Shown here in pieces: positions 9,380 to 21,753 of a stretch of DNA of 64,000 nt. The DNA lies in NCBI GenBank assembly GCA_037443265.1, contig JBBIOR010000003.1, positions 18,192 to 82,191 of the forward strand, given 5' to 3'. Position 1 is the first letter of the stretch. Each line of letters begins with the position of its first letter. Origin of the DNA: Candidatus Fraserbacteria bacterium (GTDB taxonomy: Bacteria; Bipolaricaulota; Bipolaricaulia; RBG-16-55-9). The notes beneath the pieces are model-generated. The model had not been told where the DNA came from. It was given only the letters and a program-made list of their open reading frames with translations, and made no database searches. A program made the translations under genes and the position numbers.

Positions 9380-10864
9380 TTAGAAGCCCGCTTTCAGCTC
9401 TTGGAGGAAGCGTCGCACTTGACGGTGGTAGGAGTCGAAGGGATCATCGAAGATGAGGGAGCGCTTGGCCCCAACGGTGACCCCGTCCCACTCGATGAGA
9501 TAGTCGCTTATGGGCAGGGAGCGCAGCGCCTGGACGACTTGGGCGCGGGCCTGGCCTCGGGTCTCGGTGGGGCCCTCATGGAGGGCCTTTTCGATGTCGG
9601 AGTCCTCGATCAAGTGGCGGACCTCACCGGCCTCCGCTAGGGCATAGTAGAGGCCCTGGTCGGGATTGATGTTATGATACTCGAGATCCAGACTATGGAG
9701 CATGGGGTCATTCCAGTTGAGTCCTTCGGCTTGGCGATAGAGATCCAGCAGCCCTCTCTTGGCCACCCAATCCAGACGATCTACCAGGGTCATGGGGTTC
9801 CGCTCCAAGGCGTCGAGGGTGGCCTCCCACTCGTCTAGAATGAGATCCGTCTCCTCATCCCGGTCCCGGAAGCGTTGGGCGCTTTCCAGATAGTGCCGCT
9901 GGACGTCTACGGCTCGGATGGTCCGGCCGTCTTCTAATCGAACGATCCAGCGCCAGGTGGGATCGCGCGAGATCTCCTTGAGGGTAGGGATAGGCCTGGC
10001 CAATTCTAAATCTTGTGGGGAGGCGTGCTCTTCGATGGCGTCGAGCACGAGAGCCGTTGTGCCCACCTTCAGGAACGTGGCATACTCCGACATATTGGAC
10101 TCCCCAAAGAGGATGTGGAGACGCGGAGCGTGCGAGGTGTCCTGGAAGCTGTCCCACTTGGGGTTGATCAGCGCCCGGCTGAAGCGGACGCGCCCGGAGG
10201 CGACATAGAGAATATGATCTGCCCGCTGGGAGAGCTGAAAATCTACGGTAGGGTCAGGCTCCACGCCGTAGATCTGATCGGTGAAGGCGTAATCGACCCG
10301 ATGGCGGCTCAGAGCTCGGATCATGCGGCCGGGATCGCTGGTGAGTCGGTGTCCGCCTACCCGGCCTGCTCCGGCGAAGATCTGCCGCGTCACCAAGAAG
10401 GGAATAAGCGGGGCCAGATCCCTCCCATACGGGTGCGTTTCGGGATTGAGCGAGTAGTTCTCGTGGCACCCGAACGTATGGCCGCCGTAGTGATCGATGT
10501 TGTTGTTGTGGAAGCTGACCCGCTCTGTCCAATCTAGCTCTCGCAAGATTTGAAGGATGAGTCGCTGGCCCGCCTTCTCATAAGCCACTAGCTCCCGAAG
10601 GGAGCGGCACTCGGGGGTGGCATATTCTAAGTGGCTGCCGACCACGTCGATGTAGAGGCGGCCGCCGTTGATCAAAAAACCTCCGGCCTCGGCGGGCTCG
10701 AAGAAGGCGTCGCGCGCATGTCTATCTATTAAGCCCCAGCGACGGCCGCGGAACGCTTGCTCTTTGACGCGCTCGACGACCTCCTCAGGGTCGCAGAGCG
10801 CGGAGTCGCGCACCAGACAGCCGAACTCCGTCTCGATGCCGACAATTCTGTTCAACAGAGTCAT
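9380..10864 (-). CDS. pafA: Pup/UBact ligase family protein, PafA-like paralog (divergent)
   Basis: IVGIETEFG, GGRLYIDVVGSHLEYATPEC, FGCHENYS, FLVTRQIFAGAGRVG, LSQRADH. Last gene of the operon, as in actinobacterial loci. Confidence 0.8.
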   Translation of the reverse strand: MTLLNRIVGIETEFGCLVRDSALCDPEEVVERVKEQAFRGRRWGLIDRHARDAFFEPAEAGGFLINGGRLYIDVVGSHLEYATPECRSLRELVAYEKAGQRLILQILRELDWTERVSFHNNNIDHYGGHTFGCHENYSLNPETHPYGRDLAPLIPFLVTRQIFAGAGRVGGHRLTSDPGRMIRALSRHRVDYAFTDQIYGVEPDPTVDFQLSQRADHILYVASGRVRFSRALINPKWDSFQDTSHAPRLHILFGESNMSEYATFLKVGTTALVLDAIEEHASPQDLELARPIPTLKEISRDPTWRWIVRLEDGRTIRAVDVQRHYLESAQRFRDRDEETDLILDEWEATLDALERNPMTLVDRLDWVAKRGLLDLYRQAEGLNWNDPMLHSLDLEYHNINPDQGLYYALAEAGEVRHLIEDSDIEKALHEGPTETRGQARAQVVQALRSLPISDYLIEWDGVTVGAKRSLIFDDPFDSYHRQVRRFLQELKAGF

Positions 10865-10869
10865 CCTTC

Positions 10870-11631
10870 TTATAGGAGGAAAGGTTCGAGTTCCTCCTGG
10901 TTTAAGAGTCGAAGCCTCCGTTCTCGAGAAGGATCGCGCTCCAGCACCGCAGCTTCTATCTCCATGCCTTCCTTGAGCGACTCTGTGAGGATTTGCTGGA
11001 TCTGCTGGCGGGTCGGAAGCTTCTCTGCTCCCTCACCCTCCGCCTTAAGAGCCCACTGTCCGATGGCCCAGGCGGAGAGAGCCCTTTCGAGGCCCGCATC
11101 CAGCTTGATGGTCTTGCGCTTGGTCTCTAAAAAAGCGCGCTCCATCTGCCGCTCGGCGAATTCTGTGCCGGCGATGGCTGCCTGCTGGCGATGGAGCATG
11201 AATTCCCCATCATAGTTGAGCCTAAAGAACAGATCATCTTCCGGGCGATCGCCCACCTGAGCGAACAAGCCCTTCAGGACCAGGGGTGTGCGAAACGGAT
11301 CGGCAAACGAGCGCTTGAGCACCGGGCTGATGGCAAAGCTTAGGACCCGTTGAATGGAGACGTCCTCGGGGCTGCGCTGATACCCTTCGGCGTGGGCGAA
11401 GTCCACGGCCAGTTGCCGGACGGCTTCCAAATCCGAAGGATTTCCTAAGCCCGCGAAGGCCAAGCGATCGTAGATCTCGAAGATCTTGCGCTGGGTACGC
11501 CGTGTGCTGAGCAGCAGGACCCCCACATCGCAGCTGATCCCGACCACCGGGCTGCCTCCGCGGAGGCGATCTTCGACGTAGTCGGCTTTCTGTCGGAGTG
11601 TCTGCTGCCAGTCGTAGGGCGTGTAGGCCAT
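10870..11631 (-). CDS. prcA: 20S proteasome alpha subunit
   Basis: 253 aa. Ntn-hydrolase fold signature (GSPVVGISCDVGVLLLSTRR..., IFEIYDRLAFAGLGNPSD) without an N-terminal Thr nucleophile. Directly downstream of prcB. Confidence 0.82.
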   Translation of the reverse strand: MAYTPYDWQQTLRQKADYVEDRLRGGSPVVGISCDVGVLLLSTRRTQRKIFEIYDRLAFAGLGNPSDLEAVRQLAVDFAHAEGYQRSPEDVSIQRVLSFAISPVLKRSFADPFRTPLVLKGLFAQVGDRPEDDLFFRLNYDGEFMLHRQQAAIAGTEFAERQMERAFLETKRKTIKLDAGLERALSAWAIGQWALKAEGEGAEKLPTRQQIQQILTESLKEGMEIEAAVLERDPSRERRLRLLNQEELEPFLL

Positions 11632-11647
11632 ATTATATTATATTATA

Positions 11648-12445
11648 TTATTCTCGGCGGAGCTGGCGCTGGAGGCTCCGCAGCTTCTCTTCCGGGATGT
11701 CTATCACTCCTTGGGCGGTGATGGTCTTCGCCAGCGGGGGTGGCCCAATCAAGCCGGCCGTGGCCGGATCTAAGCTGGCCGCGATGTCCAGCAAGAGCAG
11801 CGATTCTTTGAGCACCTCCTCCAAAGGCATCTCATGGAAGGGCCCGCGGGTTCGGGCAATATACTCGAACGTGCCGCGGATCTTCTCCGCGCCCGAGCCG
11901 GCCGCTCCATATTCTCGGCTCTCGAAGCGCGCGCCCAGCATGTCATAGAAGAAGATTCGTCCCTGAGTGGCCGTGCGATCATAGGCGCTCACGATGGGCA
12001 AAAATCCCCCCAAGCCCTGCAGCGCGCCGGGGAGGCTCTGAGCCAGCACTCGAGAGACTTCCGCGAGCTTTCCCTCTAGGCTCATCTCCTGAAGCTGGCT
12101 GCGGGCGTAGTATTTGAACGAGTGCCTCAGGAAACGGGCCGCTTCCGCCGCTGGAGCGTAGGAGCCGGCTACGGCAATGAGTGTGTAATCATCCAGTTTG
12201 AGGATCTTCTCGGCCTCGTCGTAGAGGATGCCCCCCGCTGAGGTGGCCCGCCGATCGGCCACGTTGAGGACTCCCTCGCTGAATTTGAGCGCGATGACGG
12301 TGGTGCCCCAAGCGGCTGAGGCCCTTTCCGCTTCCTGCCCCCAGGCGAGGGTCTGTCTTGCCAGCGGCAGAGGAATCCCCGCGCGCTGGAGCAGACGCGA
12401 GAAATCCCCCCAAGTCCCATCGTGTTCCGGGCCCATGGGGTTCAC
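11648..12445 (-). CDS. prcB: 20S proteasome beta subunit with a 47-aa propeptide
   Basis: The ...AAWG|TTVIALKF junction gives Thr1 at residue 48. Asp17 (VADRR) and Lys33 (EAEKILK) are at the expected spacing. The GTG start overlaps the upstream stop (GTGA). Confidence 0.85.
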   Translation of the reverse strand: MNPMGPEHDGTWGDFSRLLQRAGIPLPLARQTLAWGQEAERASAAWGTTVIALKFSEGVLNVADRRATSAGGILYDEAEKILKLDDYTLIAVAGSYAPAAEAARFLRHSFKYYARSQLQEMSLEGKLAEVSRVLAQSLPGALQGLGGFLPIVSAYDRTATQGRIFFYDMLGARFESREYGAAGSGAEKIRGTFEYIARTRGPFHEMPLEEVLKESLLLLDIAASLDPATAGLIGPPPLAKTITAQGVIDIPEEKLRSLQRQLRRE

Positions 12446-12621
12446 TCTCCGCTGCGCTGGCGATAGCGACGGGCCTGTCTGGGGTCTACGCGCTTCATTC
12501 GCTCGAGCAGCTCGCGCGTGTTGGGCCTCTCCACCTCAGGCGCGCGCGGATGGCTCTCTTCGTCCTCATGGGGCTTCGTCCAGGGATCGTCCGTGACCGG
12601 CCGGGTCTTGCGCTCGGGCAT
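12442..12621 (-). CDS. Pup-like small protein modifier, UBact-type (59 aa)
   Basis: MPERKTRPVTDDPWTKPHEDEESHPRAPEVERPNTRELLERMKRVDPRQARRYRQRSGE. Low-complexity, charged, C-terminal Glu. GGAGGTGAACGG precedes the ATG at 12621. Sits between the dop-like gene and prcB. Confidence 0.68.
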   Translation of the reverse strand: MPERKTRPVTDDPWTKPHEDEESHPRAPEVERPNTRELLERMKRVDPRQARRYRQRSGE

Positions 12622-12626
12622 TCCGT

Positions 12627-14129
12627 TCACCTCCTCAGGCGTCGTTCGGAGTCTGCCACCCATTGTATCAAGTCTTCCAGCGTCGCATCATAGGGGACCT
12701 CGAGCGTTCCGCCCACGAGATTCTTCAGGTCGAGCTCTACAGTTCTGTTCCGGTGAGTCACCATCACTCGGCTCCAGCTGGCGGATCGCACCTCGAAGCG
12801 CTGCACGCACAGCCCGCGCAGGAAGGCTCGCGTATCCTGGGGTGCTCTTCGCATGGCCTCCTCGATCTCCGCCTCGTGAGTCCAGCGTCGCAGGGCTCCT
12901 GCTCTTTCCAGCGCCCGGGAGAGTCCACGCTCCGGATCGAGATTGTGATATTCCAGTTCGAGGCTGCATAAGAGATCGAGATCGCCCTTCACCGGGGCCC
13001 CTTCGCTCTCAATGAAAGATTCCAAAAGTTCGCGCTTGGCCACCCAGTCGAGGCGGTCCTTGAGCCGCCGCGGATCGGCCTCAAGATCATCCAGCACGCT
13101 CTCCCACTCGCGAAGCACCCAGTCTGTCTCCTCATCCCGACCGGCGAAGAGCTCTTGGGCCGCCCGTAGATAGGCCCGTTGGATGTCGATGGCCGGAATC
13201 GTCCTGCCAGAGATCTGTTCGACCAGCCAGTGTCGATCTTGATCGTGAGAGATCTGCTTTATCGCCCGCACCGGATCCTTGAGTTCGACGGGTGGGCCGT
13301 AACCGGCTTCGAGAGTGGCCAGCACCAGAGCGGTCGTGCCCATCTTGAGAGCCGTGGCATACTCGCTCAAATTCGCATCTCCACAGATGACGTGCAGGCG
13401 ACGCCACTTATGGCGATCCGCGTGGGGCTCATCGCGGGTGTTGATGAGCGGCCTGTGATGGAGCGTATCTATGCCCAAGATCTCATCGAAAAAGTCCGCG
13501 CGCTGTGAGAGCTGATAGATGACCCGCTCTCCCGCGGCTTGCGGGTCGGTGCCTACCTTGCCGGCTCCGGCATAGAGAATACGCGTGACGAGAAAGGGCA
13601 GAATCCCGTTCACCAACTGCTCCAGGGGAATCACGCGCGGCACCAGATAATTCTCATGGCAGCCGTAGCTCATGCCGTGGTAGTCCGTGTTATTTTTATA
13701 GACGGACACGGCCCGCCCCGTGCGCTGCTCATAGCGCTTGGCGCAGGCCCATACGATGCGCTCCCCGGCCCGATCCTGGGCGATGAGATCTTTCAAGCTG
13801 TGGCACTCCGGTGTGCTGTACTCTGGATGGCCGTGATCGTGATAGAGCCGAGCGCCGTTTGGGAGCACGCGATCCACGTGCTCTTCGTGAGCGGTGCGCG
13901 GCCTGGGAGCGTGAGAGATCCTTTCATAGCGATCGTCTTTGGGGTTGGTTCTTAGGCGAGGAGCGCGGAAGCCGCGCAGATCTTGCAAGGGGCTCTCGTC
14001 ACGATAGTCCCAGCGAGGCCCCGCCGGAAGAAAACTCACAAGCGCTCGGGCCTCCGAAGTGAGATCCCCTATATCCACGCCCTCGATATACAGGCCGTAT
14101 TCCGTCTCTAACCCGAGCAGGCGATCCAT
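12627..14129 (-). CDS. dop: Pup/UBact deamidase-depupylase family protein, Dop-like paralog
   Basis: LLGLETEYG, RWDYRDESPLQDLRGF plus a long loop before NGARLYHDHGHPEYSTPEC, YGCHENY, INTRDEPHAD, LHVICGDANLSE. Located immediately upstream of the modifier gene. Confidence 0.82.
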   Translation of the reverse strand: MDRLLGLETEYGLYIEGVDIGDLTSEARALVSFLPAGPRWDYRDESPLQDLRGFRAPRLRTNPKDDRYERISHAPRPRTAHEEHVDRVLPNGARLYHDHGHPEYSTPECHSLKDLIAQDRAGERIVWACAKRYEQRTGRAVSVYKNNTDYHGMSYGCHENYLVPRVIPLEQLVNGILPFLVTRILYAGAGKVGTDPQAAGERVIYQLSQRADFFDEILGIDTLHHRPLINTRDEPHADRHKWRRLHVICGDANLSEYATALKMGTTALVLATLEAGYGPPVELKDPVRAIKQISHDQDRHWLVEQISGRTIPAIDIQRAYLRAAQELFAGRDEETDWVLREWESVLDDLEADPRRLKDRLDWVAKRELLESFIESEGAPVKGDLDLLCSLELEYHNLDPERGLSRALERAGALRRWTHEAEIEEAMRRAPQDTRAFLRGLCVQRFEVRSASWSRVMVTHRNRTVELDLKNLVGGTLEVPYDATLEDLIQWVADSERRLRR

Positions 14130-14142
14130 GAGCGCAACGTCA

Positions 14143-15834
14143 TCATACCACGGAATCCGTGGAGAGTCTTCGGCTATCAGCCCGAATCGGACGGACCTCC
14201 ACGACTTCCTCTGGGTCGTAGTCGATGAGTTTCAGCCAGTCTTCCAGATAGTCCGTCTTGGGGAATATCTCATTTTCTTTATATTCGAGTCGGATCGCCT
14301 CTTTCAGGTCTTGGGGGCGGATGCCCTCGTGCTTGCTAGCCCGCTCGATGCTGCGCTGGATCGCGAAATCTTTGGCGCGCTCTACGGCGGACATGATGAG
14401 CGCGCCGCTCACCAGATCGCTCCAGTAGAGCGTCTCGCGTCGGCCACTCTTTAGCACCACTTCCAGAAACGCCGTCTCAGGGCCACGGCGGAAGAGGTAG
14501 TCTGCGGCCTGCTCCACCAGCTCGTCGCGGGAGGCCTTCACATCCCCATCGTGCTCCCTTATCCAGTCGGGATCGAGGGGGATACGCTCGTTCAGATAGA
14601 TTCTGAATATATCCGCCGAGGCCCGGCGATCCGGCCGGCCGATCTTCACTTTTCTATCGATGCGCTCCGGTCTTAAGATGGCCGGATCGATGTAATCCGG
14701 GCGGTTGGAGGTGAGCATGACGATGACGTTCTCCAGACCCACCAGGCCATCCATCTCCGCGGCGAACTGAGGCACAACCGTGTTGGCAATGTTGAGATAT
14801 CTTCCGCTGCTGCGCACGCGGAGCAAAGAGTCCGCTTCGTCGATGAACACAAACACGAGATGGCCCTCTTTGGCCCGCTCACGGGCCGCGGCGAAGATCT
14901 CGCGCACCATGCGCTCGGTCTCGCCCAGCCACATGTTCAACAATTGCGGCCCGTTGATGAACATGAAATACTCGCGCACATCTTTGCCGACGCGCTCCCT
15001 ATAGGCCTGCGTGAGATTATAGGCCGTGGCTTTGGCGATGAGCGTCTTGCCGCACCCCGGCGGTCCGTAAAGCAAGATACCCTTCAGCTGCTTCTTGTCA
15101 AATCTCTCATAGAGCTCGGGATAGAGCAGCGGCCGCTCGATCGTGTCCCGAATGAGCCGGATCGCTTCCTCCTGGCCGCCGATCTGGTCCCAAGCGATCT
15201 CCGGAATCTTCTCCAAATAATAGCCCCGCACTTCGGACTTTTGGAAGTGTTCGAGCGCCACGCGCAACGAGGGCTCCAGGCGGACCTCATCTCCGGGCTT
15301 GAGGGTGATCTTCTCCAGATCCGACGAGCGCAGGATGATCCGCCCCGCCAGATGCCCATCGCTCGAGACCCTCAGTCGCCCATCGGGCAGGATCTCTGAG
15401 ACTTTGACAATGGGACCCTCGGGGTGATAGCCCAGATCGCCAATGACCGTAAAAGCCTCATTGACCTTCACGCGGGTGCCGATCTTCAGAGCCTTGGGGT
15501 CGAGCTTGGGGTCCACGTTGCAGTAGTATTCCGCATCGCCTACGGCCAGATAGGCGATGCCCTCGGCTGGAGAGCCCAGATACGTGCCGATGCGGTTCGC
15601 CGGAGCAGTGAGTTTTCTATAGACCTCTTCAAATTGGGCGATGGCCTGTCGGGCCTCTTGTAGCTGCTGTTCATCGACCCCAAGCTGATAATCCAGAAGC
15701 TCTAGTAGCTCTAGGCGGGGATCGCTCTGGGACGTACGCGCGAGGATCTCAGCTAAGAGGGCGCGGGCCCGGATCTGGGTCTCGAATCTCTTCGGCTCAA
15801 ACGATCCCTCGTGGGGCTGCTTGCGCCCGGCCAT
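14143..15834 (-). CDS. mpa: Proteasome-associated AAA ATPase (Mpa/ARC family)
   Basis: Start moved to MAGRKQPHEG (GAGGTGAGACC-ATG). N-terminal coiled coil, OB-like region, Walker A GPPGCGKT, Walker B FVFIDEAD. First gene of the operon. Confidence 0.82.
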   Translation of the reverse strand: MAGRKQPHEGSFEPKRFETQIRARALLAEILARTSQSDPRLELLELLDYQLGVDEQQLQEARQAIAQFEEVYRKLTAPANRIGTYLGSPAEGIAYLAVGDAEYYCNVDPKLDPKALKIGTRVKVNEAFTVIGDLGYHPEGPIVKVSEILPDGRLRVSSDGHLAGRIILRSSDLEKITLKPGDEVRLEPSLRVALEHFQKSEVRGYYLEKIPEIAWDQIGGQEEAIRLIRDTIERPLLYPELYERFDKKQLKGILLYGPPGCGKTLIAKATAYNLTQAYRERVGKDVREYFMFINGPQLLNMWLGETERMVREIFAAARERAKEGHLVFVFIDEADSLLRVRSSGRYLNIANTVVPQFAAEMDGLVGLENVIVMLTSNRPDYIDPAILRPERIDRKVKIGRPDRRASADIFRIYLNERIPLDPDWIREHDGDVKASRDELVEQAADYLFRRGPETAFLEVVLKSGRRETLYWSDLVSGALIMSAVERAKDFAIQRSIERASKHEGIRPQDLKEAIRLEYKENEIFPKTDYLEDWLKLIDYDPEEVVEVRPIRADSRRLSTDSVV

Positions 15835-15952
15835 GGTCTCACCTCGAGACTTAACGTTAACGCGAATCCTGCGGGGATGCAAGGGTCACGTGGGATTCGC
15901 TTAGGTGACCCTACCGCTTGCTGTGTGTCTCCGTTCGAGATAAAAAGGAGCC

Positions 15953-17243: not shown

Positions 17244-17319
<76 letters not shown>

Positions 17320-18116: not shown

Positions 18117-18869
18117 GTGATGTCCCGTAGGGCATTCTGGGTCATTGGGGGAATGATCTGCTTCGGGCTCTTTAAGGGTCTGGCAGCCGAAGAGCCTCCG
18201 CTCCCCCAGCCGATAGGGGAGCTCAACGACTACGCGGGCATCCTGGGACAAGAGAGCCGCCAGCAACTCCAACGCAGCATCGATGAGCTGAAGACCCAAG
18301 GCGTGAAGGTGTTTTTGCTGATCACTCTTCTTGATCCCTTCAGCGATCCTGCGCAGCTGGCAGAGAGGATCTGGCAGGCGTGGAAGCTTGCGCCTGAGCG
18401 AACGATCCTCATCGTGTTCGTGAGGGAGGCAGACCAGTGGGCTCTCTGGTGGAAGCTCACGCCGGATCTGGCCTCACAGTTGGACTACTCCTCCACTGGG
18501 GAGTATCGGAGCTCTCTGGAGCGGCTCCTCAAAGAGCGGCGGGTGGGACAGGCTGTTGTGCATTCCATTGAGTCGCTGCGAGGGTGGTTTGCCCCTCCCA
18601 AAGCGTCTGAGGAACTTCCGCCCAGAGCGGGTCCTTCTGCGGGCTCTCCGCTCTTCTGGTACCTGCTGGCAGGAGCAGGCGGAGTGGGGATGATTGCAGG
18701 CTTGATCTGGTTCGCTCTCGTCTGGCTCTGCCCCGAGTGCGGGGGGAGGCTGAGCCGGCGTTCTGCCTGGGCTTTCGGGCCCGGCCGTTGGGCTCGTAGC
18801 CGGAGGCGCGAGCGGGTATACTATTGTGCGCGATGTGGGTATCTCCGCATCCGACGGGGAGAGAGGTAG
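18117..18869 (+). CDS. TPM-domain (YgcG-like) membrane protein with a C-terminal zinc ribbon
   Basis: Signal/TM, LNDYAGILGQESRQQLQRSIDELKTQGVKVFLLI (TPM signature), a TM, then CPECGG...YYCARCGY. Confidence 0.65.
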   Translation: MMSRRAFWVIGGMICFGLFKGLAAEEPPLPQPIGELNDYAGILGQESRQQLQRSIDELKTQGVKVFLLITLLDPFSDPAQLAERIWQAWKLAPERTILIVFVREADQWALWWKLTPDLASQLDYSSTGEYRSSLERLLKERRVGQAVVHSIESLRGWFAPPKASEELPPRAGPSAGSPLFWYLLAGAGGVGMIAGLIWFALVWLCPECGGRLSRRSAWAFGPGRWARSRRRERVYYCARCGYLRIRRGER

Positions 18870-19215
18870 AGGGCCGCGGAAGCGTCAAAGCTTCTGAGGA
18901 AAGTCCGGGCTCCACAGGGCAGGCCGCTCGGTGAGAAGCCGAGAGGGAGCGATCCCTGGGTAAGGCCACAGAGACCAGACCGCCGACGTGTACTTCAGCC
19001 GACAGGCCCGAAGCGCACAGGCAAGGGTGAAAGGGTGGGGTAAGAGCCCACCGCCGGTCCTCGCGAGAGGGCCGTGGCTGGCAGCCCCCCGGCCGGAGCA
19101 AGGCCAAATAGGCAGGCGCTTGAGGGTGGCCCGCCCGAGCCTGTGGGTAGGCCGCTCAGATAGATGGCCCTCGCCCTTCATCAGGGAACAGAACCCGGCT
19201 TACGCCTCTCTCCCC
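18856..19215 (+). ncRNA. rnpB: RNase P RNA, bacterial type A
   Basis: GAGGAAAGTCCGGGCTCCACAGGGCAG, AGGGTGAAAGGGTGGGGTAAGAGCCCACC, GCAAGGCCAAATAGG and ACAGAACCCGGCTTA. P1 pairs GGGGAGAGAGG (18856-66) with CCTCTCTCCCC (19205-15). Confidence 0.9.
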
Positions 19216-19381
19216 GGCTTTGCTTTTCTGCCTGACAGCAACGCTTGGGTGCTCTTTGGGTCTTCGGTCCTCCGGAGCCCTGACTCCCATGCTGTGGCTC
19301 CTTGGCCCCTGCCTGCCGCGTCCCGACGAGCATCCTAGCACAAAGCGACGGAGGGGACAAATGCCCTCTCTTAAGTTCGGC

Positions 19382-19409: not shown

Positions 19410-19774
19410 AGCCTTGCGTTCTTTGACAATTGGGGGTGAATGGATTCGACGGGGATGCCGAAGGGCAGGCCGCAGGTGGAGTTGGCCGCTCACTCCTTAA
19501 TCAGGCGGCAAAGCACGATAAGTGCCAACGAATTTGCTTACGCTGCTCCTTCGCTAAACTAACGAAGGAGCCGTTCGCTTGAGCTTCCGCCTGCAGGGCT
19601 CAGGACGAACGTCGATGATGCGGGCTGGCTCTACTCTGCGCCCTCCGGAGTGGAGTGACACCTAGAGGGCTCGGACGCCCAGATCCTGTCTCGTGGGAGC
19701 TTAGCGTCTCAAAACAGAGCACGAGACTATGCCTGTAGAAGCCGATCGGAGGCATCTCCGGACGCGGGTTCGAT

Positions 19775-20350
19775 CAACTGCGTTATGGCAGTAAGGGTCG
19801 TCAAGGCGTTATCTCAAGCTGAGGCAGCCTATTTAGCTGGGCTTGTGGACGGCGAAGGTACTATCACCTTGACCCACATACATAAAGGAGCTAATAGGCA
19901 GCTGTCGGTTTCCATAGCCAACGCACAAGCTCTAGAGCTACTTCAGCAAATCGCGCCGTACCTCCGAACCTACAAGAGGTTACGCGCTGAGCTGGTGATA
20001 GAAAGATACAAAGCCTTGACGCCTAGAAACGGCAAATACTCCCCCGAGCTTCTGGCTGAACGGGAGAGATTCATAGCAGCTGTCCTTGCCATAACTCCGA
20101 AGGTCGCCCTGGGCAGTAATGCTCAGGTGAACACGGGGCTCACATCGGCGAAACCTGCTTGCCCACAAGGCAATGGCAACGCCGAGGGGTCGGAAGAGGG
20201 CTAACCTCAGGCCGGCCCTGTAGAGACTTATAGGCCCGCCGAAGCTCAAGCTGGGTGGGTACTAGGAGCACGTCAACGTGCTAAGACGCCCCGCATCCCA
20301 GGAGGGATGAAGGCATAGTCCAGCCCAGTCCGAAAGGATTGGAACCGCTG
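19775..20350 (+). mobile_element. Group I intron (IC3-like core) inserted in the tmRNA T-loop
   Basis: Preceded by U, ends in G. P4 CGGCG/CGCCG (20146-50 / 20180-84); P7 GACU(U)AU/AUAGUC (20225-31 / 20315-20); P8 hairpin 20267-82; P9 hairpin with GAAA loop 20325-42. Carries a LAGLIDADG ORF. Confidence 0.75.
19785..20204 (+). CDS. Single-motif LAGLIDADG homing endonuclease-like protein (short, possibly degenerate)
   Basis: 139 aa with AAYLAGLVDGEGTITL. The C-terminal ~30 codons (low complexity) overlap the ribozyme core. Confidence 0.72.
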   Translation: MAVRVVKALSQAEAAYLAGLVDGEGTITLTHIHKGANRQLSVSIANAQALELLQQIAPYLRTYKRLRAELVIERYKALTPRNGKYSPELLAERERFIAAVLAITPKVALGSNAQVNTGLTSAKPACPQGNGNAEGSEEG

Positions 20351-20394
20351 TCCCGCCACCTCCACCAGATGTCGGACGTGAGAAGGATACTGCG

Positions 20395-21753
20395 ATGAAG
20401 ACACTGAGTTGGGTTCCCATACTAGCTGTGGGATTTACTTTGGTCTTAAGCACTGCCCATCTCAGTCAGAGTCAAACCTCCCCAGGACCCATACATCTTC
20501 TCAGTGTCAAGGCCAGCATCAATCCCATCACCAAAGATTATTTGATCAGTCACATTCAGCGTGCCCAACAGGAGGGGGCCTCTCTGGTGATCATCCAGCT
20601 GGATACGCCCGGAGGACTCGTCTCCTCTACCAAAGACATCGTGGATGCCATTCTCAATGCGAGGGTGCCCATTGTAGTCTGGGTCGGTCCGGCGGGTGCC
20701 TGGGCGGCCTCCGCCGGGACGTTCATCACGATGTCGGCCCATGTGGCCGCGATGGCCCGCGGAGCCACCATCGGAGCGGCCCACCCTGTAAATATTGACG
20801 GCTCAGCCCCCAGCAAGGAGCGCCCCCCAGGGGAGCAGAGCAAAGACCAGCAAGAGCCCTCACAGGGGAGCGGAGATGCCGTCACGGAGAAGGTGACGAA
20901 TTTTACGGCCGAGTGGGCGCGGGAGATCGCCAAAGTCCGTGGCCGCGATCCCGACTGGGCCGAACAAGCTGTCCGCTCCAGTGTGACCGCTGGCTGGGAA
21001 GAGGCTCTCAATAAGAAGATCATCGATCTGGTGGCGGACAGCAGGGAAGAACTCCTTGAAAAGCTCAACGGCTATGCGCTCCAGGATGGCCGGACGCTCA
21101 CCACCGAGGGCTTGCCTGTCTTGAACATGCCCATGAGCTGGCGCGAGCAGCTCCTCAACTATCTGGCCGATCCCAATCTCGTGTATATTCTTCTGCTCAT
21201 TGGGATCTATGGCCTCATCTATGAGTTTTTGAGCCCCACGATCGGGCTCGGGTTCATCATCGGAGGCATCTCACTTCTTCTGGCGTTCTTGGGATTACAA
21301 GTCCTCCCCGTCAATCTTGTGGGGCTGGCCCTCATCTTCTTTGGCGTCCTGCTCATGATCCTAGATATCTTCACGCCGACTCACGGCATCCTGACGACCG
21401 GGGGAGTCGTTTCGCTCTTAGTGGGCTCCTTCACGCTCTTTGAGATTCCCGATCCCGCATGGCAGCTGTCGGTCTGGAACATTCTGGTGACGGTGGGGGC
21501 GGTGACGGGGCTCTTCCTCTTCTTCCTCAGCAAGGGGCTCTTGGCCCAGAGGCGCGTGCCGGTCACAGGCCTGGAGGGCATGATTGGGGCCCTAGGGATC
21601 GTCAAGGATGATTTGAACCCCAAAGGCCGGGTGCTGGTCAAGGGCGAGTACTGGTGGGCTCTTCCTGTGGACGGTCAGCCCATTTCTTCCGGAGCAGAAG
21701 TCATCGTCGAGCGGGTGGAGAACGGACGACTGCTCGTGCGCCGGCGCTCGTAG
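20395..21753 (+). CDS. nfeD: NfeD-family membrane-bound ClpP-class serine protease
   Basis: Signal peptide, LVIIQLDTPGGLV, WAASAGTFI, multi-TM middle region, and a C-terminal OB-like NfeD domain (GRVLVKGEYWWA...). Confidence 0.82.
   Translation: MKTLSWVPILAVGFTLVLSTAHLSQSQTSPGPIHLLSVKASINPITKDYLISHIQRAQQEGASLVIIQLDTPGGLVSSTKDIVDAILNARVPIVVWVGPAGAWAASAGTFITMSAHVAAMARGATIGAAHPVNIDGSAPSKERPPGEQSKDQQEPSQGSGDAVTEKVTNFTAEWAREIAKVRGRDPDWAEQAVRSSVTAGWEEALNKKIIDLVADSREELLEKLNGYALQDGRTLTTEGLPVLNMPMSWREQLLNYLADPNLVYILLLIGIYGLIYEFLSPTIGLGFIIGGISLLLAFLGLQVLPVNLVGLALIFFGVLLMILDIFTPTHGILTTGGVVSLLVGSFTLFEIPDPAWQLSVWNILVTVGAVTGLFLFFLSKGLLAQRRVPVTGLEGMIGALGIVKDDLNPKGRVLVKGEYWWALPVDGQPISSGAEVIVERVENGRLLVRRRS

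Follow-up and report, generated by a model that had tools for sequence, protein, structure and literature searches.

The stretch of DNA analysed here, called the window throughout, comprises 64,000 nucleotides (nt) from a Candidatus Fraserbacteria bacterium, and its ssrA gene for transfer-messenger RNA (tmRNA) is interrupted in the T-loop by an insert of 576 nt. The insert carries an open reading frame (ORF) with a LAGLIDADG motif and ends in what we predict to be a group I ribozyme. The parts of the gene, in window coordinates, are as follows.

19432-19774, plus strand: ssrA exon 1, with acceptor 5' strand, tag ORF, pseudoknots, T-stem 5' strand and T-loop nt 1-6 (ending …GCGGGUUCGAU), from RF00023 and from ARAGORN on the spliced sequence
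19524-19562, plus strand: tag reading frame ANEFAYAAPSLN with its stop, resume codon GCC, from ARAGORN
19775-20350, plus strand: predicted group I intron of 576 nt, inserted at internucleotide position 7 of the T-loop, with U19774 at -1 and G20350 as omega-G
20351-20367, plus strand: ssrA exon 2, with the final T-loop nt, T-stem 3' strand, acceptor 3' strand and encoded ACCA, from ARAGORN and the 17-mer count

The Rfam tmRNA model (RF00023) matched positions 19439-19776 with 131.7 bits, and its alignment ended within the T-loop, at GGACGCGGGUUCGAU / GGGUUCGAU, with the final 15 model positions deleted. This bears out an earlier note on the same DNA, which had read a tmRNA 5' portion cut in mid T-loop at 19774 and had named RF00023 as a check. 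ARAGORN called no tmRNA in the unspliced window, as is expected for an interrupted gene, and returned a complete tmRNA of 360 nt when 19432-19774 was joined to 20351-20367. The acceptor stem of the joined molecule has 7 base pairs (bp), GGGGGUG/CACCUCC including G3·U, the T-arm reads GCGGG-UUCGAUU-CCCGC and the terminal ACCA is encoded; the 17 nt which the note had singled out as the missing T-stem and acceptor strands were hence recovered at 20351-20367. The mRNA-like domain is present as well, with resume codon, tag ORF and pseudoknot region (RF00023 and ARAGORN). The 17-mer of exon 2, TCCCGCCACCTCCACCA, occurs once in the window, where about 0.04 chance matches are expected at up to two mismatches. 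At eight related loci ARAGORN likewise found a full tmRNA only after in-silico splicing, and the tag, with the pattern AN.FAYA..(S/A)LN in eight intron-bearing relatives, is kept across nine intron-bearing lineages. The tags of this lineage (window 19524-19562 and loci L001-L012) end in -SLN or -ALN and not in the usual -LAA, examples being ANEFAYAAPSLN, ANTFAYATASLN and ANNFAYAAALN…, and ARAGORN labelled that of the window 'Tag not identified'.

Relatives of the insert were collected by a scan of one genome per species with the 15-mer GAAGGCATAGTCCAG of the conserved 'S' element, which gave at least 120 loci that were then filtered with a family profile. Among the matches listed there was one close relative, L045, from a Candidatus Bipolaricaulia metagenome-assembled genome (MAG), which is the nearest relative of the intron in the genome collection, along with 15 tmRNA introns of 278-350 nt that lack an ORF and sit at the same T-loop site. 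The hosts of these ORF-less introns (L022, L027, L046, L055, L062, L064, L079, L082, L086, L092, L095, L096, L101, L109 and L127) are MAGs of Steroidobacteraceae, Woeseiaceae and other Gamma- and Betaproteobacteria. About 30 more of the matches listed are distant group I introns, and the rest showed no similarity and are probably due to chance. The ORF-less proteobacterial introns share with the window a homologous core (nhmmer E 1e-36 to 1e-54), the insertion site and the guide sequence GGUCG; their P1 loop (L1) is 3-8 nt long or a small hairpin, whereas that of the window is filled by the ORF. Four of them (L095, L101, L127 and L064) have a small extra hairpin in L1, e.g. UGAUGCGAAGGAAUCGCAAU, hence L1 tolerates expansion even when no ORF is present. 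As for the host lineage, the PNPase encoded in the window is closest to that of Candidatus Fraserbacteria (69%), with those of Candidatus Bipolaricaulota, Bipolaricaulia and Acetothermia at 60-65%.

The ribozyme part of the insert covers about 250 nt (20102-20350). From an alignment of 25 homologous tmRNA introns (A3) we derived a structure of 12 helices, P2-P9, in which P3 is written as a pseudoknot with P7. Its elements are given below together with P1, a caret marking the splice site.

19771-19775, plus strand: P1 5' strand CGAU^C, with the 5' splice site after U19774, partner GGUCG at 20102-20106
20102-20106, plus strand: internal guide sequence and P1 3' strand GGUCG, invariant in 25 homologues, P1 by RNAalifold
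20108-14/20121-27, plus strand: P2 hairpin CCUGGGC/GCUCAGG, 7 of 7 pairs compensatory
20134-39/20288-93, plus strand: P3, 5' strand CGGGGC, pseudoknot with P7, 100% paired, 2 pairs compensatory
20145-50/20180-85, plus strand: P4, from A3, within the P4-P5-P6-P6a domain (20145-20219)
20154-55/20175-76 and 20159-63/20169-73, plus strand: P5, from A3
20186-93/20212-19, plus strand: P6, from A3
20196-99/20205-08, plus strand: P6a, with the ORF stop codon in L6a
20225-31/20315-20, plus strand: P7, GACU(U)AU ('R' element, bulged U20229) with AUAGUC ('S' element), paired and invariant in 25 of 25
20234-40/20254-60, plus strand: P7.1, IA-type peripheral hairpin between P7 and P3', 5 of 7 pairs compensatory
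20267-72/20277-82, plus strand: P7.2, IA-type peripheral hairpin between P7 and P3', 5 of 6 pairs compensatory
20294-99/20304-09, plus strand: P8 hairpin, followed by J8/7 AAGGC and then the P7 3' strand
20325-31/20336-42, plus strand: P9 hairpin with GAAA loop, followed by the tail AACCGCUG up to omega-G20350

Of the cells of A3 96.0% are paired, a share that drops to 34-41% once the 3' partners are shifted by 1-3 columns, and compensatory double changes occur in 40 of the 70 pairs. The covariation score reaches 0.445, with shifted partners it does not exceed 0.092, and none of 500 shuffles reached any of the observed measures. P4 and P9 are supported by both pairing and covariation. When run on 12 ORF-less proteobacterial introns alone RNAalifold recovered P1, P2, P3, P4, P5, P6, P6a, P7.1, P7.2, P8 and P9. 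A nhmmer profile of 12 ORF-less introns matched the window at 20100-20367 only (E=6e-56), and a covariance model, R1, made from the trimmed cores of 12 ORF-less proteobacterial introns, matched 20128-20344 with 200.1 bits over the full length of the model, as its sole match in the 64 kb. One broken pair was flagged in the core helices of the window, in P7.2. Of the core helices picked out by the earlier note P4 (CGGCG/CGCCG), P7 and P9 reappear in the derived structure; the extent of about 210 nt given there was too short, and P1 and the guide had been missed. Its central proposal, an ssrA split by a group I intron whose mature tmRNA would need splicing, is supported by the reconstitution of the exons, the covariation among 25 homologues and the family-specific covariance model.

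The intron site lies after T-loop nt 6, GGGUUCGAU^C…CUG^UCCCGC, which matches position 7 of the tmRNA census of 2025 (PMC11915505). The insert follows a U (U19774) and ends in a G (G20350), just as the earlier note described. The -1 U, the omega-G and the U·G wobble of P1 at the 5' splice site (U19774·G20103 in the window) are kept in 25 of 25 sequences, in which the CUG preceding exon 2 is invariant as well. P1 of 12 ORF-less relatives is predicted by RNAalifold as a simple hairpin, CGAU(C/U)-loop-GGUCG, and since the ORF-less relatives fixed the position of the guide we assign it to GGUCG. Three other guide candidates were rejected, namely GUCGUC within the N-terminal part of the ORF (19807 onward), GGUGAAC (20127 onward) and AUCGG (20144 onward); the grounds across the three were that a candidate was non-conserved, mismatched beside the splice site, or part of J2/3 or P4.

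The same data bear on whether the 576 nt might be what is left of a mobile element or of a genomic island in the 3' end of ssrA, with 20351-20367 as a displaced copy of the attachment site. Integration would regenerate a complete gene at one junction, and here the gene is incomplete at 19774; there is no second copy of the 3' end in the window and no integrase adjacent to the insert, which itself has a covarying group I fold, a -1 U and an omega-G. It is true that tmRNA genes are often integration sites of islands (PMC11915505), and that the locus L134 has a partial duplicate of the tmRNA 3' end beside a homologous endonuclease gene. We nevertheless take the island explanation to be effectively refuted by the covarying fold, the single copy of exon 2 and the R1 match, and give it next to no credence.

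Subgroup IA of the Michel-Westhof scheme is defined by P7.1 and P7.2 between P7 and P3', and these are not known from IC3. The helix order P7-P7.1-P7.2-P3'-P8-P7' together with P2 hence supports an IA-like fold for the window intron. The resemblance to IC3 introns of the Azoarcus type, which the earlier note saw by eye, was rejected on account of P7.1 and P7.2. The tmRNA intron of C. botulinum is reportedly labelled 'IA3'. A 'P7.1 region' in tmRNA introns is mentioned in the census, too (PMC11915505).

The loop of P1 is occupied by the ORF, whose start codon lies in a further stem, P1a.

19785-20204, plus strand: degenerate single-motif LAGLIDADG homing-endonuclease ORF, 139 amino acids (aa), in the P1 loop, AUG at 19785-19787
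19782-19791, plus strand: P1a 5' strand GUUAUGGCAG, which holds the endonuclease AUG, partner 20086-20095
20086-20095, plus strand: P1a 3' strand UUGCCAUAAC, with the codons for …AIT, where the real endonuclease domain ends

The LAGLIDADG helix with its terminal acidic residue lies at residues 16-25 (YLAGLVDGEG). The earlier note had been right about a LAGLIDADG protein, the motif reading LAGLVDGEG, and had not noticed that 114 nt are deleted from within the ORF. Of the 343 homologues found for the endonuclease, the closest (45-65% identity) all lie, as the window copy does, between a tmRNA 5' part and the 17-nt 3' end of the tmRNA, with an NfeD gene downstream. Both I-MsoI (E 2.5e-10) and I-CreI are matched by the family profile, along the alpha-beta-beta-alpha-beta-beta-alpha core. 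Compared with 11 of 11 aligned homologues (alignment A1) the window ORF has an in-frame gap of 38 aa, which corresponds to alpha2-beta3-beta4 in the I-MsoI alignment; the core is incomplete, and the protein has 139 aa against 172-225 aa in the relatives. At the DNA level the deletion is a clean loss of 114 nt with its junction at about 19913-19916 (alignment A4), and in the relatives the lost segment is bounded by an imperfect direct repeat, ATCACCAACAC / ATAGCCAACAC, which suggests that the deletion arose by slippage. The ORF scores below the Pfam cut-offs for both LAGLIDADG_1 (17.9 bits, cut-off 23.1) and LAGLIDADG_3 (17.4 bits, cut-off 22.5), and a Shine-Dalgarno-like purine run, found 5-10 nt before the AUG in the relatives, is missing in the window. 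From the 114-nt loss, the low Pfam scores and the loss of the purine run we infer an endonuclease that is most likely dead and an intron that is immobile in this genome.

The open frame could also be explained by a shortened protein that still functions, either as a folding maturase or as a minimal endonuclease. What has gone amounts to half of the DNA-binding sheet of I-CreI/I-MsoI, which together with the low Pfam scores and the missing purine run speaks against such a function, while the deletion is exactly in frame, the acidic residue of the LAGLIDADG helix (GLVDGEG) is retained and outside the deletion the ORF shares about 82% identity with its closest relative over the aligned positions. 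The direct repeat around the deletion is typical of a slippage accident, however, and the ORF-less relatives have the ribozyme without any protein. We consider a functional protein quite unlikely and keep to a dead endonuclease as the most likely state.

P1a is found in all nine ORF-bearing sequences, with compensatory changes at five positions, and pairs the AUG segment (and the Shine-Dalgarno-like run of the relatives) with the codons …(L)AIT that close the endonuclease domain. The last 35 or so codons of the ORF cross the internal guide sequence, P2, P3, P4, P5 and P6 up to the UAA in L6a, and in some relatives the read-through extends beyond L6a. The conserved C-terminal tails seen in A1 are explained by this continuation of the reading frame through the ribozyme core. 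One might combine these features into a third, undescribed housing of endonucleases in tmRNA introns, in which the ORF sits in L1, P1a sequesters the ribosome-binding site and the AUG, and the frame runs through the guide to P6; as a joint reading we hold this to be unlikely. If it were true, the ribozyme could not fold while the ORF was being translated, nor the ORF be translated on a folded ribozyme, with tmRNA maturation coupled to or gated by translation, and the in-frame 'half-domain' protein could be kept as a maturase-like cofactor and not be junk.

The putative target of the endonuclease is the intron-less site CGGACGCGGGTTCGATTCCCGCCACCTCC, i.e. the T-arm DNA of the tmRNA gene. As a natural pseudo-palindrome (GCGGG…CCCGC) the T-arm DNA would be a fitting target for a homodimeric LAGLIDADG enzyme, and this may account for repeated invasion of the site.

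Endonuclease homologues were also seen outside introns. In a Steroidobacteraceae MAG (L136, 1119-1992) and in Parahaliea mediterranea (L133, 1173-1947) free-standing homologues, P0030 and P0062, begin about 50-60 nt past a tmRNA gene with an ORF-less intron of the same family; they are 43-48% identical over the aligned 63-71% of the query, and the arrangement is reminiscent of 'collaborative homing'. On a Candidatus Lloydbacteria-type contig (L134, 1390-2562) a standard uninterrupted tmRNA is followed after about 200 nt by the homologue P0026 in antisense, with the partial tmRNA 3'-end duplicate CTCCCCACCTCCAC between the two and a Bro-N gene nearby; the whole has the look of an element integrated at ssrA. 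In the census no intron-form tmRNA is listed for Patescibacteria (PMC11915505).

We suggest the following pathway. The precursor would be transcribed with the 576-nt IA-type intron between T-loop nt 6 and 7, and the exon bases CGAU with the first intron C would pair with the guide GGUCG to form P1, placing a U·G at the splice site. The guanosine-binding core would be formed by the domains P3-P8 and P4-P6 together with the P3/P7 pseudoknot, an external guanosine would cut after U19774, and the freed 3'-OH would attack after omega-G20350. The exons would then be joined as GGGUUCGAU-UCCCGCC (predicted junction GGUUCGAU^UCCCGCC; …GGGUUCGAU-UCCCGCCACC…), and a tmRNA of 360 nt with the tag ANEFAYAAPSLN would thereby regain its T-arm and acceptor stem. 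As the tmRNA is complete only once the exons are joined, trans-translation would depend on splicing. The long P1 loop would house the I-CreI/I-MsoI-like gene, its start codon locked in P1a, and with the endonuclease most likely dead the intron would now be a vertically inherited passenger.

We hold it highly probable that the window carries a functional intron-form ssrA which matures by group I self-splicing and whose endonuclease is degenerate, its competence in vivo being graded somewhat lower than its identity. Several points weigh against this. Splicing itself is what we infer from the sequence. P1 is short (5 bp) and shows no covariation among the 25 homologues except C/U at +1, and P10, as judged by inspection, has no more than about 2 bp. 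No covariation signal comes from P7 and from most of P4, which never vary and are hence neutral evidence. In its lower part P1a of the window is weaker than P1a of the relatives, and about 330 nt of degenerate ORF are left in L1 and may impair folding. Further, the search for other ssrA copies covered the 64-kb window, in which Rfam finds a single tmRNA match, and a second intact ssrA elsewhere in the genome is possible.

A last point of this kind is that the Rfam group I model, Intron_gpI (RF00028), gave no match in the window at its gathering threshold and none on 19700-20420 even at E<=10. The earlier note had named the lack of a covariance-model hit to group I introns as a ground for giving up its interpretation, and for RF00028 that is the outcome. 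RF00028 gave no match on 12 related loci at the gathering threshold either, which fits the published absence of bacterial sequences among its seeds (bioRxiv 10.1101/2020.01.27.920355). R1, on the other hand, also matches about 30 more distant group I introns among the scanned loci listed, and in L013, L061, L075, L097, L111 and L116 its matches overlap RF00028 calls that are above the gathering score, at the same coordinates. These six loci, called by both models, tie the tmRNA intron family to the curated group I class, and we judge the miss in the window to be a failure of sensitivity, i.e. a false negative, and not counter-evidence. The cores of these roughly 30 group I-like introns (L013, L061, L070, L071, L075, L097, L105, L111 and L116 among them) are shorter, at 140-200 nt, with Polynucleobacter, Methylotenera, Neisseriaceae, Oligoflexia, Saccharibacteria, Akkermansia and Burkholderia as hosts.

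Some of these points would equally suit a decaying ssrA pseudogene, or an intron that no longer splices, in a genome with its intact ssrA elsewhere: the endonuclease is degenerate, P1a is weakened, and one tmRNA match in 64 kb is a limited view. The exons, however, score like those of the relatives (131.7 against 103-140 bits, RF00023), the reading frame of the tag is intact and has been conserved in the whole lineage, R1 matches over its full length at 200 bits, and the core pairs are unbroken except the one in P7.2. Nine independent relatives with the same interrupted gene in the same context fit a functional gene. We therefore regard a pseudogene or splicing-incompetent intron as very improbable, and a functional, self-splicing ssrA as by far the better account.

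It should be noted that with the usual tools (ARAGORN and the Rfam models tmRNA and Intron_gpI) this ssrA is either overlooked or comes out truncated, hence genomes of the lineage will look as if they had no complete tmRNA. Judged from its sequence, the gene would be a well-resolved case, from a deep-branching phylum whose members are mostly uncultured, of an essential quality-control RNA that needs ribozyme splicing. Further, a single target site is met at several stages, with a full-length endonuclease in L1, the deleted copy of the window, ORF-less introns, and a free-standing endonuclease beside an intron-form tmRNA, and these make a convenient natural series for the homing cycle and for partnerships of endonuclease and intron. 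Current understanding is not overturned by any of these findings.

As to the neighbourhood, a bacterial class A RNase P RNA (214.9 bits) is encoded at 18858-19217 on the same strand, about 215 nt 5' of ssrA, and the two genes are also adjacent in the relative L002 (RNase P at 1828-2180, tmRNA from 2678). A UBact-proteasome gene cluster occupies 9380-15882 on the minus strand. Its genes, and the only transfer RNA (tRNA) gene of the window, are:

9380-10864 and 12627-14129, minus strand: two Pup-ligase-family genes
10870-11631 and 11648-12445, minus strand: two proteasome subunit genes
12442-12663, minus strand: UBact gene, 73 aa, ending …RQRSGE (Pfam PF20513, 71.5 bits)
14143-15882, minus strand: proteasomal AAA ATPase with OB domains
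17244-17319, minus strand: tRNA-Ala (GGC)

With the IC3 tRNA introns (Azoarcus tRNA-Ile type) the window intron has in common a bacterial host, a tRNA-like context, a GAAA tetraloop on P9 and a compact P4-P6, and it differs from them in having P7.1 and P7.2 and in its site, which is the T-loop and not the anticodon loop. The endonuclease family resembles I-CreI and I-MsoI, which are homodimeric single-motif enzymes, in having one LAGLIDADG motif; unlike these the window copy lacks alpha2-beta3-beta4, and its host is a bacterial RNA gene and not an organellar rRNA gene.

Intron-form tmRNA was reportedly first described in Clostridium botulinum, by Williams in 2002. The intron of that tmRNA has been described as previously shown to self-splice, and the oligonucleotide used in its folding assay, 5'-CGAU-3' (PMC2729099), has the same four exon bases that we place in P1 of the window. 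The earlier note knew of one precedent and called such introns rare, a view that does not hold, as the census counts 883 unique intron-form tmRNAs in 21 phyla, mostly at loop position 7 (PMC11915505). Among its 119 Bipolaricaulota genomes 87 have a standard tmRNA and one has the intron form at position 7 (Supplementary Table 2), and in Pseudomonadota there are 159 intron-form cases at this position (PMC11915505).

The window intron is like these intron-form tmRNAs in gene, site, -1 U, omega-G and P7.1 region, and like a minority of the class it carries a LAGLIDADG homing-endonuclease gene, here a degenerate one. In the founding set of the census such genes lie after P9 (4) or in the P7.1 region (19) (PMC11915505), whereas in the window and nine relatives the gene lies in the P1 loop, with its start codon paired in P1a and its tail running across the guide sequence to P6, unlike census members. 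The introns of the full-length relatives, of 695-710 nt, are at or just above the census maximum, as no tmRNA intron of more than 700 bp is reported there (PMC11915505). From the L1 placement and these lengths it follows that the variant is one not described in the census. By its sequence, the window intron is a member of a well-catalogued class, with a modestly unusual placement of its endonuclease gene.

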